From Thermoplasmata archaeon (GTDB lineage: Archaea > Thermoplasmatota > Thermoplasmata > Lutacidiplasmatales > UBA184): 64,000 nt of DNA. The notes beneath the pieces were generated by a model. That model saw only the letters and a program-made list of their open reading frames with translations, did not search any database and was not told the DNA's origin. The stretch is taken from the NCBI GenBank assembly GCA_030038655.1, contig JASHSP010000113.1, forward strand, positions 5,420 to 69,419, written 5' to 3'. The position numbers and the translations under genes were made by a program. This document shows positions 563 to 58,184 of this stretch, in pieces (the first letter of the stretch is position 1; each line of letters opens with the position of its first letter).

Positions 563-654
563 GGTCCTTCCTCGGGGTGCGATAGGCACGAAGCCAGTAT
601 AAGCCGGACGCCCCGCCGGGCCGCGCGATGTTTTATCACGGTCCCGCTTGACGT

Positions 655-752
655 AAGACGCAGGGGGAGCTCGGAACCGGCTGAGAGGACGAGGTTCGCC
701 TCGTCGACCCCAGGAACCTGCACGGGATAATGCCCGCGAAGGGAACGCAATG
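655..752 (+). promoter_or_regulatory. TPP (thiamine pyrophosphate) riboswitch / THI element in the 5' leader of the ABC transporter operon
   Basis: The sequence ..GCAGGGGGAGCUCGGAACCGG CUGAGA GGACGAGGUUCGCCUCGUCG ACCC CAGG AACCUG CAC GGG AUAAUGCC CGCGAAGGGAAC.. matches the THI-box consensus (GGGGxGC..CUGAGA..ACCC..AACCUGAUCxGGxUAAUxCCxGCGxAGGGA). It lies 40-135 nt upstream of the ThiB-like binding-protein gene. Boundaries are approximate. Confidence 0.75.
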
Positions 753-790
753 CGCGCGCTGAGGCAGCACTCCGCCGGCTCCGCGGGGGG

Positions 791-30299: not shown

Positions 30300-33200
30300 G
30301 TGCCTGGGGCGATGCGCGACCGCAACCTCGCGCCCTTGGCCGTTGCGGTCGCTGTGGTCTTCCTCCTTCTTGGTTCGGCGAGCCCCGTCGAGGAGCTGCG
30401 AAGTACCTCCGCGTCCGAGGCGGTCCTCAATGAGGCGAGTGCGGCGGTGGGGTCAACTTCCGAGGTTGCGGGCATGGTTCCTGCAGCCGCGCACGTGGGC
30501 GGCGGTGGATCAACCGGGGCGGCCGAGCGCTCTTTAGCGTCGGGGGTTGCGCAGTCGGGTGGCTTCCCGCACGCCGGGCCCGGGCCGTTCACAGTAACGT
30601 TCGTTGAGGGAGGGTTGCCCAGCGGGACCGACTGGTTCGTCGTACTGAACGGGTCGAACGGGTCGTCGTCCGGAACATCCGTGTCGTTTACGAATGTTAC
30701 GCCGGGCGTCGTCGCCTACGAAGTACTTCCGATACACGGGTACGGGGTCGTCCCTTCCAACGGTACGCTGACGATCGCGGCCAACCTTACTCAAGGGCTG
30801 ACGTTCGTCCCTGTTTCCCCTCACCCCGGCACTCTCGAAGTGTACGAGGACGCCCCCGGCGGGGCCCCCACCGTGGACCCGGCCATTTCCTACCAGACGA
30901 CGGGGCTTGAGCCGATCAGCAACGTGTACGAGACCCTGATCACCTACAACGGCAGCAGTGGAACGGATTTCGTGCCGACGCTCGCTACGTGCGTCCCCGG
31001 CACCGCCCAGTGTGTTACCGACTACCACTCCACCCTGATCCAAGACGGAACAGGGGCCTTCGCGGGCCAGCCCGAGTACTGGACGTTCGTTATCGATCCG
31101 AACGCCCGATTCTACGATCCCTCCACCCATTCGTCCTGGCCCGTGTACCCCTCCGATGTCGTGTTCTCGATCGCTCGGACGTGCGCGTTCGCCGACCTCC
31201 CCGTTGTCTACGACGACCCTGGCTGGATCCAATGCCAGTCCCTGCTATCGCGCGGCAACCCGAACTGGGACAGGTCCGGTGGAAATGGATCAGGAATCCA
31301 TTCCCCGTACAACAACACGCCCTCCAACATCCTCGGATCGATGCTCGTGAACGACAGTCGATACTGTCCGGCTGCCGCCCTCGTGTCCGCTCATGGCTGC
31401 ATCACGTTCCGGGCCGAAAGCAACAACCAGACGTGGCCTTACTTTCTCGAGCTCATCGCCGATCCGCTCGGCGCGAGCATCGTCCCGTGCGGCTGGTTCA
31501 CGTACGAGACCGGGGGAATCCCGGGGTGGACGGGGACATCCGCACCCAAGGGCGACGGATCGTGTCTCCTGCCCGACCGGGGAACGACGACGAACTCCTC
31601 CGCGTGGACCGCGTACCTTTCCGGACTCAGTCCGACCGGCTGGGATTCGTTCGAGAAGCTGGCGTACAACTACCCCGCGGTGCAGCCTCAGGTACAGTGG
31701 GACATGGTGGGGTCCGGTCCGTACTCGGCCAGTATCGATCCGGGGGTCTCGTATCAGCTGACGGCCAGCCCCGCCTACGAACAACCCGCCGCCTGCTCCG
31801 CTTCCAGCGGCGTGGCGGTGTATGGCGGGACGTGCGATCCTCCGCCCGGGAGTTTCCCCGGATCGGTCGAGGTCACGTGGGAGAACAACACCAGCCTGGG
31901 GCTATCCGCGGTGGCGGCGGGCCAGGCCGATTTCGCGGAGTATCAGGTGCCGCAGACTCCGGACGTGGTTTCCCTCGCGAGCGACGGTCTCGCCACGTTG
32001 ACCCGTGTGAACACGATCAGTTCCTTGTTCCTTCCGATGGATCTTAACTGGAGCGACTCTCAATACATGGCGGCCCACCTCCCCGGCACCCCGAACATCC
32101 CTGCGAACTTCTTGTCCGGCTTGGCCGCGAGGCAGCTCCTCGTCCACGCGTACCCCTATACCACGATCGAAAACACGGTCGCGACGGTGGACGGTATTCC
32201 GTACGCGAACGAGGAAGGAGGACCGATTCCGCCGGGGATGTCGGCGTACTACCCGACGAACGTTTCCTTCCCGGCGGGAGATCCCGATTACAATCCGACC
32301 GACGTTGGCGGTGCGGCGTGGTGGTGGTCGGTGGGGACCAATTCGAGCTCCCCCTACTACGATGCGGAGCTCGCCGCGTGCACCGTGGGGAGCCCGTGCC
32401 GCTTCCCCCTCGCTGAGGACATCGGTCAACTGATCGGTGGCGCAGCATACGCGGACTGGATCGACGCAATCGAGAACATCACTTCGGGTGCAGTCCAGCC
32501 CACCGCGATCAATCTGACCTACGCTCAAGTGTTCAACGTGAGCTACGGCCAGCCACCGGGAGAAAACGCGCTGCCGGTGTCGGCGCTGGGATGGGCCCCC
32601 GACTACTTTGATCCGACCGACTACGTAGGCCCCCTTGCAGCCCCGGGGGGACCCTTTGTCTCCTCCGATGCCGTGAGTGAGCAGCTTGCGCTCCCCGCCT
32701 ATGACGACACCAGCGGCTGCCATCATTCCTCCGGAAGCTTCGCTGACCTCGCCTACTGGGCGAAGCAGGGCACCCTCGCGGAGGTGTGCCAGGGGGTCGC
32801 GTATCAGACCGCCGTCGACTGGATGAACACGGCGGAGGTGGACGCCAACGAGTCGTCTCGTGCGGTCGACTACGATCTGGTCGAGAGCATCCTGAACGAG
32901 CTCGCTCTGTACGTATGGCAAGGTCAGCTGAACGACGAAGTGCTCGCCGCGCCCTGGATTGCGGGAGACTCGATCAACGAGAATCCCATGATCGGCGGAA
33001 GTGGTTCCGAGCTGTGGTACGACGTCCAGTACCGGACGTCGGCCCCGGCTCCCGCGACCGTCTCCGTCGGCAGCGGACCGGACGCTGTGGTCTACGACCC
33101 CGCGAACGGCGATGTCTACGCGGCCAACTTCTACTCGGGCACAGTGTCCGTAATCAACGCCACCACGCAGTCGGGGGTCGCGACCGTGGCGGTCGGGGCG

Positions 33201-35033
33201 GGACCCCGGTCGCTCCTGGTCGATCCTTCGAGCGGTTCGGTCTACGTCGCCGACCTGAACTCGAACTCGATCACGGTGATCAACGCGACTACGAATACGC
33301 CCGCGGCGACCGTACCCGTGGGGGACCTCCCGTACGCTCTCGCCCTTGACGGGTCCGGCTCCCATGCGTCCGTTTACGTCGCCAACTACGGATCCTCCAC
33401 CGTAACCCGGATCAACGCGAGCTCGAACGCCGTCCGGTCGACGATCTCGGTAGGAAGCTATCCCGAGGTCCTCGCCGTGGACACGACAAACGCGGACCTC
33501 TTCGTCGCGAATTTCGTTTCCGGCAATGTCAGCATCATCGCCGGTTCTACCGTTACCGCGACGGTCCCCGTCGGGCGATTTCCGGAGGCGATCGGATTCG
33601 ACCCCGCGACGAACGAGGTCTACGTTGCCAACTCGGGGTCCGACAACGTGAGCGTGATCTCGGGGTCGTCACTGACCACGAGCGCGACGGTGACGGTCGG
33701 CGGCGACCCCGGTTCGGTACTCTACGACCCCGTCGGCCAAGAGCTCTACGTGGCGAACTTTGGGTCCGACAGCATCAGCGTCATCAACGGGACGACCCAC
33801 GCGGTCGTCACGACAGTCGAAGTGGACCCGATCGCGATGGCGGTCAACCCCGTGAACGGGGACGTGTACGTCGTCGACTCGGGAAACAACACGCTCTCCA
33901 TCATCTCCGCCTCCACGAACACCGTCTCCAGCACGGTTTCGACGGGCAGCGAGCCGACCGCGTTGGCGGTCGATCCCACGTCCGGATCGGTGTACGTGGC
34001 CAACGAAGATTCGGGGAGCGTGTCGGTCGTGCCCCCGCTCGAATCGATTCGAGTCACCGAGGTCGGGCTGGCGTCCGGGATACCGTGGTGGTTCGCCCTG
34101 ACCGGTCTGTTCTCGCGCTCGACCGACCCGGTCCAGCCGTTCGACGAGCCGTCGGGGACGTACGCGTTCGAAGCGGGGGCGGCCTGCTACGACGCGAGCC
34201 CTAACCACGGCACGGTCCTGGTCGGCGCGACGGGGGCGACGGTGACGATTGACTTTACGCCGGTCAGCTGCTACCCGATCACCCTGCACGAAGCGGGGTT
34301 GCCGAAGGGGAGTTCGTGGTCCGTGGCGAACAACGACTCGACCGTCATCGGGACCGAGAAGCTCGTGCTCTCCGAGCCGGAAGGCCCGTTCAGTTACACG
34401 ATCGTTCCCCCCGTCGGGTACGGCGTCGCGAAGGTGGCGGGTCCGGGCGAGCCGAACCAAACCTCCGGAACCGAGGCGGGCGCACCGGTAACTTGGACCG
34501 TGACGTTCGGTGCGCTCGAGTCCCTCTACTTCAACGAGACCGGCTTGCCGTCCGGCACGCCGTGGGCCATCGAGCTGACTCCTGCGCTCGCTCACGGGGG
34601 CCCCGCCGCTCAGGCCGCGAGCTCGGTCGAACCGTCCGTCGACTTTGTGGCCCCTAAGGGCGCGAGCTTCCGATTCGTCGTAAGCGCGCCATCGATCTAC
34701 CTTCCGGGACACGCCCACGGCATGGTCGGTGTCGCGGGCCACGCGACCACGAAGAAGATCGCGTTCGTGCTGTTGACCTCGAAGATCGTATTCAAGGAGA
34801 GCGGTCTCCCCGAGCGCACGAGCTGGTCGATCACCGTCGTGGGCACCGATGCCGCCGGTGTGAAGTGGAACGAGACGCTGAGCGAGTCCACGCCGACGAT
34901 AACCTTCCGGCTTCCGAGCGGCGCCTACGCCTACACGGTCGCCATGATCACCGACCGAACGCCGTCCTCCGCCGGAGGTACGCTATCGGTGGCGTACCCG
35001 ACGCCGCAGACATTCCTGATCTCGTGGACGTGA
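30300..35033 (+). CDS. Giant secreted glycoprotein: signal peptide, family-5 solute-binding-protein (OppA/DppA-like) domain, YVTN beta-propeller repeats and TGLPxGTxW Ig-like repeats; no C-terminal TM
   Basis: The probable ATG is at 30312 (MRDRNLAPLAVAVAVVFLLLGSASP). An SBP_bac_5-like segment follows (LEVYEDAPGGAPTVDPAISYQTTGLEPISNVYETLITYNGSSGTDFVPTLATCVPGT). YVTN repeats come next (GSGPDAVVYDPANGDVYAANFYSGTVSVINATT..). The C-terminal repeats are VTEVGLASGIPWWFALTG, ITLHEAGLPKGSSWSVANND, YFNETGLPSGTPWAIELTP and VFKESGLPERTSWSITVVG. Confidence 0.7.
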   Translation: MPGAMRDRNLAPLAVAVAVVFLLLGSASPVEELRSTSASEAVLNEASAAVGSTSEVAGMVPAAAHVGGGGSTGAAERSLASGVAQSGGFPHAGPGPFTVTFVEGGLPSGTDWFVVLNGSNGSSSGTSVSFTNVTPGVVAYEVLPIHGYGVVPSNGTLTIAANLTQGLTFVPVSPHPGTLEVYEDAPGGAPTVDPAISYQTTGLEPISNVYETLITYNGSSGTDFVPTLATCVPGTAQCVTDYHSTLIQDGTGAFAGQPEYWTFVIDPNARFYDPSTHSSWPVYPSDVVFSIARTCAFADLPVVYDDPGWIQCQSLLSRGNPNWDRSGGNGSGIHSPYNNTPSNILGSMLVNDSRYCPAAALVSAHGCITFRAESNNQTWPYFLELIADPLGASIVPCGWFTYETGGIPGWTGTSAPKGDGSCLLPDRGTTTNSSAWTAYLSGLSPTGWDSFEKLAYNYPAVQPQVQWDMVGSGPYSASIDPGVSYQLTASPAYEQPAACSASSGVAVYGGTCDPPPGSFPGSVEVTWENNTSLGLSAVAAGQADFAEYQVPQTPDVVSLASDGLATLTRVNTISSLFLPMDLNWSDSQYMAAHLPGTPNIPANFLSGLAARQLLVHAYPYTTIENTVATVDGIPYANEEGGPIPPGMSAYYPTNVSFPAGDPDYNPTDVGGAAWWWSVGTNSSSPYYDAELAACTVGSPCRFPLAEDIGQLIGGAAYADWIDAIENITSGAVQPTAINLTYAQVFNVSYGQPPGENALPVSALGWAPDYFDPTDYVGPLAAPGGPFVSSDAVSEQLALPAYDDTSGCHHSSGSFADLAYWAKQGTLAEVCQGVAYQTAVDWMNTAEVDANESSRAVDYDLVESILNELALYVWQGQLNDEVLAAPWIAGDSINENPMIGGSGSELWYDVQYRTSAPAPATVSVGSGPDAVVYDPANGDVYAANFYSGTVSVINATTQSGVATVAVGAGPRSLLVDPSSGSVYVADLNSNSITVINATTNTPAATVPVGDLPYALALDGSGSHASVYVANYGSSTVTRINASSNAVRSTISVGSYPEVLAVDTTNADLFVANFVSGNVSIIAGSTVTATVPVGRFPEAIGFDPATNEVYVANSGSDNVSVISGSSLTTSATVTVGGDPGSVLYDPVGQELYVANFGSDSISVINGTTHAVVTTVEVDPIAMAVNPVNGDVYVVDSGNNTLSIISASTNTVSSTVSTGSEPTALAVDPTSGSVYVANEDSGSVSVVPPLESIRVTEVGLASGIPWWFALTGLFSRSTDPVQPFDEPSGTYAFEAGAACYDASPNHGTVLVGATGATVTIDFTPVSCYPITLHEAGLPKGSSWSVANNDSTVIGTEKLVLSEPEGPFSYTIVPPVGYGVAKVAGPGEPNQTSGTEAGAPVTWTVTFGALESLYFNETGLPSGTPWAIELTPALAHGGPAAQAASSVEPSVDFVAPKGASFRFVVSAPSIYLPGHAHGMVGVAGHATTKKIAFVLLTSKIVFKESGLPERTSWSITVVGTDAAGVKWNETLSESTPTITFRLPSGAYAYTVAMITDRTPSSAGGTLSVAYPTPQTFLISWT

Positions 35034-35082: not shown

Positions 35083-35191
35083 GACGGTGGCCACGCCCGT
35101 GCTGGGATTCGAACCCAGGTCTGAGGCTCCGCAGGCCTCTAGGATAATCCACTGCAGCGATGCGGGGAATTGGCCCCGACACCGTAGCTAC
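35083..35191 (-). tRNA. tRNA-Arg (anticodon GCG) with a ~35-nt non-canonical intron in the D-loop
   Basis: Reverse strand: GCCCGTG-TG-GGGT-AGC[TACGGTGTCGGGGCCAATTCCCCGCATCGCTGCAG]TGGATT-ATCC-TA-GAGGC-CTGCGGA-GCCTC-AGAC-CTGGG-TTCGAAT-CCCAG-CACGGGC-G. The 7-bp acceptor stem, 5-bp anticodon stem with 7-nt loop (U33, G37) and T-arm GGTTCGAATCC are all perfect. A TATAAAA box lies at 35248-35254 on the same strand. Exact intron borders are not resolved by eye. Confidence 0.6.
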
Positions 35192-35285
35192 CCCACACGG
35201 GCATCGACGCTCCTGCGAGCGCTCGTTCGGCGGCGAGATGGGCGCGCTATAAAAGCTCGGGCTCGAGAACGAACTCCCCCGCGCC

Positions 35286-56471: not shown

Positions 56472-56528
56472 CAGGTCCCGGCCCTCGGTCGAGGCCCGGC
56501 CCCGACTCGGTCGACCCGTCCGCCGATG

Positions 56529-56635
56529 GGGCTGCCTGAATTTGAATCGGGGTCCCGGGCTCCCAAAGCCCGAAGGATGGACCAGTAGAGCGGACCGAGG
56601 TGCGCCCTCGCGCCCGTAGCTACCCCACAGCCCCG
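56529..56635 (-). tRNA. tRNA-Pro (anticodon UGG) with a ~34-nt non-canonical intron in the D-loop
   Basis: Reverse strand: GGGGCTG-TG-GGGT-AGC[TACGGGCGCGAGGGCGCACCTCGGTCCGCTCTAC]TGGTCC-ATCC-TT-CGGGC-TTTGGGA-GCCCG-GGAC-CCCGA-TTCAAAT-TCAGG-CAGCCCC-A. The 7-bp acceptor stem and 5-bp anticodon stem (U33, G37) are perfect. The T-loop TTCAAAT sits on a stem with one C-A mismatch. The 5' exon and intron start are identical to tRNA-Arg for 17 nt. Confidence 0.55.
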
Positions 56636-56644
56636 CATCGGGAC

Positions 56645-57073
56645 CTAGATCGCGTCGACCCGCTTCAACGTTCGGCCGATCTTGCACTCCGCCGGCTCCG
56701 GGTCGACCCGCTCGATGCGGAACCGCTGTTTCGCTGGCACCTCGGGCCCGGCGCAGATCCACCAGTTCGAGCAGTCGAGGCGACGGCACGGGTACCGGCC
56801 GACCTCGACCTGGCTTCCCACGATCCCGCTGCGCGAGTCGACGACCAGCGGCCGCGGCACCGGCCTCACTTCGACCACGTGCGCGTCCGTCTCCTGGAGG
56901 GCGCACGGGTGCGTCACCGTCCGGACCTTCGTCACGGCGTACCGGCGCCCCGCGTCGAGCGTCAGGCACGCGTGTCGGTACGGGCAGGTCCGGCACACGG
57001 GGGCTCCGCCCTGGTACACGAATTCGAACCCCTCGCGCGCCTCGGCGACGCCGAGCAGCGTAATCTCCGGCAT
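56645..57073 (-). CDS. UPF0179-family protein
   Basis: 142 aa: MPEITLLGVAEAREGFEFVYQGGAPVCRTCPYRHACLTLDAGRRYAVTKV..HPCALQETDAHVVEV.., with the conserved Cys pattern and N-terminal ITLxG..A..GxEF of the archaeal UPF0179 family. Confidence 0.55.
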   Translation of the reverse strand: MPEITLLGVAEAREGFEFVYQGGAPVCRTCPYRHACLTLDAGRRYAVTKVRTVTHPCALQETDAHVVEVRPVPRPLVVDSRSGIVGSQVEVGRYPCRRLDCSNWWICAGPEVPAKQRFRIERVDPEPAECKIGRTLKRVDAI

Positions 57074-57074
57074 C

Positions 57075-58184
57075 TCAGTCGATCACCCCGGTCACGGTCG
57101 CGAGACGCTCGGCCGCGTCCCGGGGGAGCCCGCTGTCGCCCAGGATCGTGTACCGGTCGGGGCGGACGGAGTGCGCCATCACGAGCGCCCGCACGACCTC
57201 CTCCTTCGTCACGCCCAGCTCCCGCGCGGTCGTGGGGGCGCCGATCGTCAGGAGCGCGTTCTTGAGCCGCTTCCAGTCGCCTCCGTGAAGGTACATCATC
57301 ATCACGGCGCCGACGCCGCACTGCTCGCCGTGGAGGCTGGGGTGCTCCGCGGTCCGGTCGAGCGCATGGCTGAACAGGTGCTCGGAGCCCGAGCAGGGGC
57401 GGGACGATCCGGCGACGCTCATGGCGATCCCCGCCACGAGGATCGGCCGGATCGCGATCCATACCGATTCCTCGAGGTTCGGCTTGATCGCCCCGGCGTG
57501 GTCGATCACTTCCTGGGCAGCGTACTCGCTCAGGGTCGCGGCGGTACTCGAGTACTCCTCGCTCCGGAGCCGGACCGCGAGCCGCCAGTCGAGCACCGCG
57601 GTGACGTTGGAGATCACGTCCGCGCAGCCCGACGCAAGGAGCCGGAACGGTGCCTGGACGAGCACCGCGGTGTCGGCGATCACCCCGATCGGGACCGCCG
57701 CGGTCAGGCTGGTCACGCTCTCCGCGTCGTGCAGCGAGGCCCGGGGCGAGGAGATGCCGTCGTGCGCGGCCGACGTCGGCAGGCTGATGAACGGGATCCG
57801 GAGGCGTGCGGCGACGACCTTGGTGATGTCGATCTTGCTTCCGCCCCCGGCCCCGATCAGGAAGCGGGCGTCGGTCGACCGGACCTCGGCGGCGACGCGA
57901 TCGACCTCCGCGACCGTCGCTTCGCGCGCGATGATGGTGGCGACGGAGAACCCGTCGGCCGCGAGGATCTCGCTCGCGCGGTTGCCGGCGAGGAGCGCGG
58001 TCCGCGGACCGGTGACGACGGCGCCACGGGACGGGAAGTCGAACTGCCGGCAGGTCGCCGCGAGATCCTCGATCACGCCGTGTCCGACCAGCACGGTGCG
58101 CGGGAACACCATCCCCTTGGCCTTCCCGAACGGCGAATCGGCCGTACCTCGGGGGACTCGCCCCTCGGCCACGCTCTCCGCCAT
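57075..58184 (-). CDS. egsA: NAD(P)-dependent glycerol-1-phosphate dehydrogenase (archaeal lipid backbone synthesis)
   Basis: Has the G1PDH fold of the dehydroquinate-synthase/iron-ADH superfamily. Motifs GAGGGSKIDITKVVAARL and ..SGSEHLFSHALD..HGEQCG.. are present. The likely start is the Met at 58110-58112 (MVFPRTVLVGHGVIEDL), 24 codons inside the track ORF. Confidence 0.75.
   Translation of the reverse strand: MAESVAEGRVPRGTADSPFGKAKGMVFPRTVLVGHGVIEDLAATCRQFDFPSRGAVVTGPRTALLAGNRASEILAADGFSVATIIAREATVAEVDRVAAEVRSTDARFLIGAGGGSKIDITKVVAARLRIPFISLPTSAAHDGISSPRASLHDAESVTSLTAAVPIGVIADTAVLVQAPFRLLASGCADVISNVTAVLDWRLAVRLRSEEYSSTAATLSEYAAQEVIDHAGAIKPNLEESVWIAIRPILVAGIAMSVAGSSRPCSGSEHLFSHALDRTAEHPSLHGEQCGVGAVMMMYLHGGDWKRLKNALLTIGAPTTARELGVTKEEVVRALVMAHSVRPDRYTILGDSGLPRDAAERLATVTGVID

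Follow-up and report, generated by a model that had tools for sequence, protein, structure and literature searches.

Introns located in the D-loop of archaeal tRNAs, which fold into HBh' or BHB motifs and are spliced in vivo, have been described at position 20b/21 of tRNA-Glu of Methanopyrus kandleri (PMC5829648) and in tRNA-Thr2 of Aeropyrum pernix (PMC3241643). For the HBh' form in the D-loop, Crenarchaeota as well as M. kandleri provide precedents. The non-canonical intron positions covered in reviews include 20/21 and 22/23, and in the canonical geometry the first two bases of the anticodon are part of a 4-bp helix (PMC4090602). The α4 and α'2 classes of the splicing endonuclease need a strict hBHBh' motif (PMC3239211), whereas relaxed motifs are cut by those (αβ)2 and ε2 enzymes that carry a specific loop (PMC3239211; PMC5829648). 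The α'2 EndA of A. fulgidus barely cuts even a strict BHB in the D-loop except when equipped with the crenarchaeal loop (PMC3241643), and Cluster-II Euryarchaeota, Thermoplasmata included, contain α'2 enzymes only (PMC5829648). In the literature, introns that are non-canonical or relaxed are tied to (αβ)2 or ε2 enzymes bearing a loop, and Cluster-II Euryarchaeota are assigned no introns other than strict canonical ones. It is in a lineage of this group that we here describe a relaxed D-loop intron that has long been kept in about a hundred species.

The analysed stretch of DNA (the window, 64,000 nucleotides) contains two interrupted genes for tRNA-Arg(GCG) and tRNA-Pro(UGG). Both are real genes, for which the coordinates and boundaries of the first description had to be corrected. 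As had been noted in the first-pass annotation, they are located on the minus strand with perfect acceptor and anticodon arms (a mismatch in the Pro T-stem aside) and with uninterrupted anticodon loops of sequence CUGCGGA (Arg) and UUUGGGA (Pro). The span of 35083-35191 given for Arg is of correct length, but reading of the sequence reveals an offset of 11 nt, the span lacking the first 11 nt of the gene and including 11 nt of its 3' flank, and Pro, which had been placed at 56529-56635, instead covers 56527-56634. The block shared between both genes, TGTGGGGTAGCTACGG, comprises 16 nt and not 17, since the base preceding it is G in Arg and C in Pro. The genes are composed of the following parts:

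35094..35202, minus strand: tRNA-Arg(GCG) gene with intron, 109 nt, from GCCCGTG to CACGGGC-G (sequence reading).
35186..35202, minus strand: Arg exon 1, nt 1-17, GCCCGUGUGGGGUAGCU, identical in 59/60 distinct homologues.
35152..35185, minus strand: Arg intron, 34 nt, ACGGUGUCGGGGCCAAUUCCCCGCAUCGCUGCAG, position 17/17a, delimited by invariant versus variable columns and by intronless homologues.
35094..35151, minus strand: Arg exon 2, UGGAUUAUCCU... to the discriminator G, identical in 55/60 distinct homologues.
35247..35254, minus strand: TATA-box-like TTTTATAG, 45-52 nt upstream of tRNA-Arg, from the position of the AT-rich octamer in relatives.
56527..56634, minus strand: tRNA-Pro(UGG) gene with intron, 108 nt (sequence reading).
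56618..56634, minus strand: Pro exon 1, GGGGCUGUGGGGUAGCU, identical in 55/55 distinct homologues.
56585..56617, minus strand: Pro intron, 33 nt, ACGGGCGCGAGGGCGCACCUCGGUCCGCUCUAC, position 17/17a, with the same boundary logic as for Arg.
56527..56584, minus strand: Pro exon 2, UGGUCCAUCCU... to the discriminator A, 6 variants among 55 distinct homologues.

Divided into its structural elements, the Arg precursor (35202..35094, minus strand) reads GCCCGUG-UG-GGGU-AGCU[34 nt]UGGAUUA-UCCU-A-GAGGC-CUGCGGA-GCCUC-AGAC-CUGGG-UUCGAAU-CCCAG-CACGGGC-G and the Pro precursor (56634..56527, minus strand) GGGGCUG-UG-GGGU-AGCU[33 nt]UGGUCCA-UCCU-U-CGGGC-UUUGGGA-GCCCG-GGAC-CCCGA-UUCAAAU-UCAGG-CAGCCCC-A. In the T-stem of the latter, an A at position 63 (56537, minus strand) leads to a C51.A63 mismatch (CCCGA/UCAGG). 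This position is G (UCGGG) in 56/56 related Pro genes and the A, found in the window only, may have arisen by a private mutation or by an error of sequencing or assembly, or may slightly weaken the tRNA. The closing pair of the Pro T-stem is A53-U61 instead of the usual G53-C61, a feature shared by the whole clade and by many homologues that lack the intron (L132-L238).

Neither gene is detected by common tRNA finders in its interrupted form. ARAGORN reports no tRNAs in the raw window, and neither does Rfam at its gathering threshold. A permissive Rfam search produces a mis-aligned partial tRNA match on Arg (35094-35158, 26.8 bits at a gathering score of 29) and, at E<=10, nothing on Pro. If the inserts are deleted in silico, ARAGORN in its default mode calls a standard 75-nt tRNA-Arg(gcg) and a standard 75-nt tRNA-Pro(tgg), while no call is obtained for the unspliced sequences. 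These calls after insert removal and the existence of intronless homologues with the same exons define the hosts as bona fide tRNAs, as had been proposed, and the silence of both programs on the raw sequence is a property of the tools and no evidence against the genes. Mis-calling, which had also been anticipated, is found in relatives, where ARAGORN with its intron option forces false anticodon-loop introns into the genes of 119 related loci (L001-L119) and assigns many of them as tRNA-Thr(ggt), Ser(aga/gga), Pyl(cta), Gly(tcc) or Arg(ccg). Public annotations of the intron-bearing MAGs may carry errors of this type. Since the finders miss or mis-assign both tRNAs, the tRNA complements and MAG scores of a widespread archaeal order of soil and peat can err, as can codon-capacity estimates and quality scores of the kind 'all 20 tRNAs'. 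A scan of the window for T-loops in combination with acceptor complementarity revealed no hidden tRNAs beyond Arg and Pro. The inserts match no intron family in Rfam, and we have rejected their assignment as self-splicing group I or II introns, as they are simple hairpins of 28-36 nt that lack a catalytic core of hundreds of nucleotides.

To define the distribution of the interrupted genes, we scanned a genome set in which each species is represented once, using the pattern TGGGGTAGC-N20-45-TGGNNNATCCT-N25-30-TTCRAAT. The more than 119 loci retrieved compare to few expected by chance, as estimated by hand, and the combination of D-arm, insert and T-loop is thus far beyond chance. All of the matches listed except two originate from MAGs titled Thermoplasmata, Thermoplasmatota or Methanobacteriota archaeon, obtained from soils and peat and including UBA184, UBA61 and Candidatus Lutacidiplasma silvani. 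The two exceptions, titled 'bacterium', are both contigs of a single MAG. Among the matches listed, the intron is in this way lineage-informative, as had been suspected, and its 16-nt exon/intron junction provides a sharp lineage marker. From the listed loci, we extracted at least 118 homologues (62 Arg, 56 Pro) in at least 96 MAG assemblies, 23 of which contain both genes among the matches listed, and which correspond to 115 distinct sequences (60 Arg and 55 Pro). Both genes are carried, for example, by OY970259.1 and CAWEHV010000002.1. The comparison of these homologues reveals exons that are nearly invariant, introns that are almost all different and a hairpin that is kept with covariation. 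The single variant of Arg exon 1 concerns a compensated acceptor-stem pair, and Arg exon 2 shows 4 variants among the distinct homologues compared to 6 in Pro. Conversely, the intron differs in 60/63 Arg and 55/57 Pro sequences and ranges in length from 28 to 36 nt. With a GC content of 70%, the window resembles the approximately 69% reported for Lutacidiplasmatales, in a description that leaves introns unmentioned (PMC9287336), and the host clade has the appearance of a deep, order-level group of Lutacidiplasmatales/TMEG-like Thermoplasmata.

The position of the intron was assigned by a comparison with uninterrupted genes. Metagenomes were scanned for homologues in which TAGC and GG are separated by 0-6 nt, yielding 107 intronless sequences, all of which (107/107) contain a TT spacer (AGC-TT-GG, AGCUUGG in the RNA). 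One intronless Pro and one intronless Arg differ from the spliced tRNAs of the window by compensated stem pairs only. At the 5' boundary of the 115 distinct homologues, C16 and U17 never vary, and position 18 is occupied by either A or U (A in 54 and U in 6 of the 60 Arg sequences). At the 3' boundary, an unchanging U-G-G is preceded by any base in Arg and by C, U or A in Pro. Only the cut AGCU/.../UGG gives an identical product in every sequence, and this product has the D-loop AGCUUGG found in 107/107 intronless homologues. Column conservation, the constant product and the intronless sequence together place the intron between U17 and U17a. The conservation pattern and the intronless homologues thus support the initial proposal that both tRNAs are interrupted at one and the same D-loop site, with a shift of the intron start: the insert does not directly follow AGC but A14-G15-C16-U17, one nucleotide further 3', so that the introns begin with ACGG and not with UACGG, as is evident from the 115 distinct homologues and the AGCTTGG of 107/107 intronless genes. 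Their length is 34 nt in Arg and 33 nt in Pro. An alternative register in which the central helix would comprise U13-C16 with a cut after N18 was rejected, as it leaves variable nucleotides in a mature D-loop of 13 nt and is inconsistent with AGCUUGG in 107/107 intronless homologues. The latter also contradict the opposite bulge topology, which does not correspond to a BHB geometry.

The region around both junctions of tRNA-Arg can be described by a central helix H formed between exon and intron, the two splice sites and a hairpin h' within the intron:

35188..35191, minus strand: exon strand of helix H, G12 U13 A14 G15, with its partner at 35154-35157.
35154..35157, minus strand: intron strand of helix H, CUGC (CUAC in other species, from homologue counts).
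35185..35187, minus strand: 5' splice-site bulge C16 U17/A18, directly adjoining H and h'.
35151..35153, minus strand: 3' splice-site trinucleotide A G/U, followed by G18 G19, with no adjacent outer helix.
35158..35184, minus strand: intron hairpin h' with a 5-bp lower stem, a 1-nt bulge, a 5-bp upper stem and a 6-nt loop (from folding and covariation).

In the Arg precursor, H contains the pairs G12-C49, U13-G48 (U-A in other species), A14-U47 and G15-C46, and its intron strand is CUGC in 34, CUAC in 23, CUAU in 2 and CUAA in 1 of the sequences. All four pairs can form in 59/60 homologues. In an alignment of 20 Arg sequences of equal length, 98.8% of the cells of H are paired and variation is one-sided only, so that H appears conserved but shows no covariation. 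In 115/115 distinct sequences, the C16 U17/N18 bulge immediately adjoins H on one side and the C19-G pair of h' on the other (in Arg, h' begins with C19-G45 next to C16 U17/A18). Spacing is equally fixed in 115/115: the 5' bulge always measures 3 nt and the invariant UGG always follows H at a distance of 2 nt, whereas variation in length is limited to the distal hairpin. In the Arg 3' trinucleotide A50 G51/U52, the first position is A in 59/60 sequences, the second any base and the U is invariant. The hairpin itself is well supported: each of the five lower h' pairs shows 3-22 two-sided changes across all homologues, with 0-10 of 1000 shuffles reaching the observed pairing, and in 20 Arg sequences of equal length 6/10 pairs change on both sides. 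The structure imposed on these 20 sequences pairs 95.6% of the cells, which is reached in 0/500 shuffles and compares to 39-45% with slid partners. The mean z-score of the hairpin relative to shuffled sequences is -2.96 across homologues, and its mean dG about -15 kcal/mol.

What distinguishes this arrangement from a strict hBHBh' motif is the absence of an outer helix of at least 2 bp beside the 3-nt 3' bulge. Among the alternative pairings examined, none would permit a helix that abuts this bulge. In Arg, G11 faces G53, and pairing of G9-G11 with U59-C61, the closest helix that could form, would leave a loop of 9 nt, and in Pro, U8-G11 can pair with U54-A57 leaving a loop of 5 nt. Since no helix abuts the 3' trinucleotide, the motif is a relaxed HBh' and not a strict hBHBh', in agreement with the relaxed BHB that the first-pass annotation had postulated. 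Judged by the definition of HBh' in the nomenclature of Marck and Grosjean (PMC5829648; PMC3239211), the Arg motif is clean, while that of Pro is obtained only if a mismatch is allowed in H. The expectation that a BHB could form at the junctions thus holds in its relaxed form for Arg, but the motif is degenerate in Pro. In the calculated ensembles, the probability of H is 0.28 for Arg and 0.04 for Pro. RNAalifold prefers a helix between exon 1 and exon 2 over H in the Arg set, and folds of single sequences prefer other pairings for the invariant exon parts.

In Pro, the introns end with CUCUAN in 52/55 distinct sequences. In the register homologous to Arg, the intron strand CUCU of these 52/55 sequences provides a G-C and an A-U pair, a U.C mismatch and a G.U pair, and 2/55 are perfect. 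The latter are divergent tRNA-Pro genes with a shorter intron of 28 nt (L084:2405-2507 and L118, 405-507 on the reverse strand), which end with CUAC-AA-UGG and thus form a perfect Arg-like H, whereas the other 53 distinct Pro sequences end in the CUCUAC type. If the register slips by two nucleotides, GUAG and CUAC pair perfectly, and this arrangement is predicted to dominate with a probability of 0.71 compared to 0.04. The lower stem of the Pro hairpin covaries. The last intron nucleotide is C in 45, U in 7, A in 3 and G in none of the sequences, and C and U would pair with G12 in the slipped register. We have nevertheless rejected this register for the placement of the 3' cut, since a cut at UG/G would produce AGCU+GUCC and eliminate G18-G19, in conflict with 107/107 intronless homologues, although either conformer may be the one that is cut.

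These features bear on the question of whether the introns, although spliced, are removed in a way other than by a standard α'2 EndA that recognises an HBh' motif in a single step, be it by an altered EndA, with the aid of a helper, via alternative conformers or with the 3' cut in Pro being located elsewhere. The missing outer helix, the degenerate H of Pro with its dominant slipped pairing and the bias of the last Pro nucleotide towards bases that pair with G12 would all be accounted for, as would the poor cleavage of D-loop introns by published α'2 or loop-less enzymes (PMC3241643; PMC5829648). We still regard such a process as unlikely, since the slipped product disagrees with the sequence of all 107 intronless homologues, since Arg and the two divergent Pro genes form a clean motif and since the EndA of M. 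kandleri, although devoid of the loop, serves to mature a D-loop HBh' intron in vivo (PMC5829648).

A different possibility is that the insert is not removed at all and that the mature tRNAs carry an extra hairpin emanating from the variable part of the D-loop. The insertion point at 17/17a is within the length-variable α region of this loop and the hairpin is stable, both in favor of a retained arm. Such an arm would have no need for the pairing between G12-G15 of the exon and the 3' end of the intron, which competes with the D-stem, nor for the exact 3-nt and 2-nt spacings that correspond to the geometry of an EndA substrate, and homologues with identical exons exist that do without it. A natural tRNA with a hairpin in its D-loop is not known to us. 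We consider retention to be very improbable.

The genomic surroundings provide information on the age of the interruption. The tRNA-Arg gene is arranged head-to-head with gatD-gatE in the window, as assigned by Pfam, and in about 58 related loci, where the identity of GatD to the window protein decreases from 86% (L116) to 55%. The conservation of this synteny over such a range of identities marks the Arg intron as old and maintained. In 45/60 Arg relatives the most AT-rich octamer falls into the same position bin (-55 to -51) as the TTTTATAG box of the window, within a GC-rich background. The interrupted gene is thus old, vertically inherited and maintained. These properties are difficult to reconcile with decaying or disrupted genes, either pseudogenes or targets of a small mobile element, whose functional copies would be located elsewhere. 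The failure of Rfam and ARAGORN to call the genes and the C.A mismatch in the T-stem of the window Pro could be viewed as signs of decay, but exons are invariant across at least 96 assemblies with variations compensated in stems, the intron helix covaries, and gatD synteny and the TATA box are kept across 55-86% GatD identity. Moreover, the 119 related loci (~834 kb) contain no convincing intronless Arg(GCG) or Pro(UGG), the 95 ARAGORN calls in this sample being nearly all interrupted genes or implausible calls with long introns and few of them short. The cores of Arg and Pro introns are no more alike within genomes (identity 0.578) than between them (0.594), which makes a recent insertion of a mobile element unlikely and leaves no signal for concerted evolution or recent transposition between the two introns. 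Taken together, we attribute hardly any weight to an origin as decaying genes.

Further observations concern the neighborhood of both genes. The tRNA-Pro gene starts 10 nt past the stop codon of a UPF0179 gene (56645-57073, minus strand), which is preceded by an Fe-ADH_2 gene resembling glycerol-1-phosphate dehydrogenases (57075-58184, minus strand). No separate TATA box was found upstream of tRNA-Pro, and in relatives the same coding 3' end is located at this place, thus suggesting that tRNA-Pro is probably co-transcribed with the UPF0179 and Fe-ADH_2 genes. On the other side of tRNA-Arg, a convergent open reading frame of 1,577 residues (30300-35033, plus strand) approaches the 3' end of the tRNA to within about 60 nt. 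Its beta-propeller repeats belong to the YNCE, NHL and lactonase types, and it likely encodes a surface protein. At 653-762 (plus strand), the window matches the TPP riboswitch RF00059 with 52.6 bits (gathering 54.3, E = 1.9e-7), which is probably a real thiamine riboswitch.

Gene identity, boundaries, the conservation of the structure and its phylogenetic spread emerge directly from the comparison of homologues. On this basis, we consider it probable, at roughly 80%, that both are functional tRNA genes with protein-spliced archaeal introns of the relaxed HBh' type at U17/U17a, which would be removed by EndA, with the exons sealed by an RtcB-type ligase, and which are vertically inherited within a clade of Thermoplasmata. 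The absence of an outer helix, the loop-less α'2 type of the EndA homologues recovered from high-GC Thermoplasmata, the slipped pairing predicted for Pro and the exon 1-exon 2 helix favored by RNAalifold in Arg count against this reading. In the proposed precursor, G12-G15 of the exon, otherwise the last part of the D-stem and the first of the D-loop, would pair with the four intron nucleotides located two positions before its 3' end to form the 4-bp helix H, thereby bulging out C16-U17-N18 and exposing the 5' splice site after U17. The remaining intron would fold into the hairpin h' of 10-11 bp, and the 3' splice site A-N/U would follow H at a distance of two nucleotides, within a single strand that extends into G18-G19. 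EndA would then cut both sites and an RtcB-type ligase would join AGCU to UGG, restoring the AGCUUGG of intronless homologues with predicted ligated junctions GGGGUAGCU/UGGAUUAUCC and GGGGUAGCU/UGGUCCAUCC. The hosts are the two tRNAs that share the D-arm UGGGGUAGCU needed for H, and the intron has been passed on vertically across a deep Lutacidiplasmatales/TMEG-like clade.

Excision in vivo and the identity of the participating enzymes are features that we infer from sequence. No EndA was found in the window and the 119 related loci by use of an M. jannaschii EndA query and a motif regex. Profile searches retrieved more than 1,300 EndA homologues of the two-unit α'2 type with a length of about 350 residues, several of which are named Thermoplasmata, and one group resides on contigs of 67-68% GC. 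The best match of this high-GC Thermoplasmata group to a solved structure is the fused M. kandleri enzyme (5x89), and an alignment to A. pernix EndA reveals the absence of the 10-residue loop KPRGADFEGP in the Thermoplasmata proteins. On high-GC Thermoplasmata contigs (L120-L131, L239-L242), endA is part of a conserved block consisting of a PDDEXK_19/HTH gene, endA, DUF1028/PG_binding_2, Amidohydro_3 and an aminotransferase. The EndA homologues on the inspected contigs belong to other assemblies or bulk metagenomes and none to an intron-bearing assembly, so that the α'2 type is a presumed one for the intron-bearing clade. We propose only tentatively that an order-level clade of the Lutacidiplasmatales type might rely on a loop-less single-chain α'2 enzyme for D-loop HBh' splicing of its apparent Arg(GCG) and Pro(UGG) genes. 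If true, the clade would depart naturally from the rule by which relaxed or D-loop introns are left to (αβ)2 and ε2 enzymes that bear a loop. Its EndA subfamily would then either possess a determinant of specificity that has so far gone unnoticed or be assisted by the tRNA body or by a further factor. Interest in the system would rise if the EndA of the clade proves to be a loop-less α'2 enzyme, and its 115 introns in two tRNAs, with either a clean or a degenerate H, offer a natural comparative test set for cleavage by α'2 enzymes.

Among described systems, pre-tRNA-Glu(UUC) of M. kandleri is closely similar in being a euryarchaeal precursor with a non-canonical D-loop intron (PMC5829648) and a relaxed HBh' motif, of which one bulge and the helix within the intron are properly formed, and its EndA lacks the specificity loop, as do the Thermoplasmata homologues that we have retrieved. 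It differs in the position of the intron, which is 20b/21 in M. kandleri but 17/17a, 5' of G18-G19, in the present case, where it is found in two tRNAs, as the sole intron of each, and in at least 96 species-level MAGs. The enzyme is (αβ)2 in M. kandleri and likely a single-chain α'2 protein here. Pre-tRNA-Thr2(UGU) of A. pernix also contains a D-loop intron, for whose removal EndA suffices without other factors (PMC3241643), although cleavage in the D-loop is slower than in the anticodon loop. That intron forms a full BHB, which is processed by an (αβ)2 EndA with the Crenarchaea-specific loop in an organism rich in non-canonical introns, whereas the motif described here lacks the outer helix and belongs to a lineage of Thermoplasmata. 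With canonical introns at 37/38, the present ones share the geometry of four exon and two bulge nucleotides before the 5' cut and four intron and two bulge nucleotides before the 3' cut (PMC4090602), and a distal hairpin that is free to vary. They differ by their location in the D-loop, by the composition of H from nucleotides of the D-stem and D-loop and by the missing closure of the 3' bulge, which in canonical introns is provided by the anticodon stem. As far as the accounts in PMC3239211 and PMC4090602 go, one type of intron at the same position of different tRNAs that share a flanking exon is also found in Thermoproteales, whose non-canonical introns have been proposed, in work cited there, to spread by transposition. 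Here, the hosts are two tRNAs only, with no sign of recent copying and a vertical pattern. The introns thus represent a known kind of archaeal tRNA intron, and what is new is their unusual site at 17/17a and their occurrence in a lineage where they were not expected.
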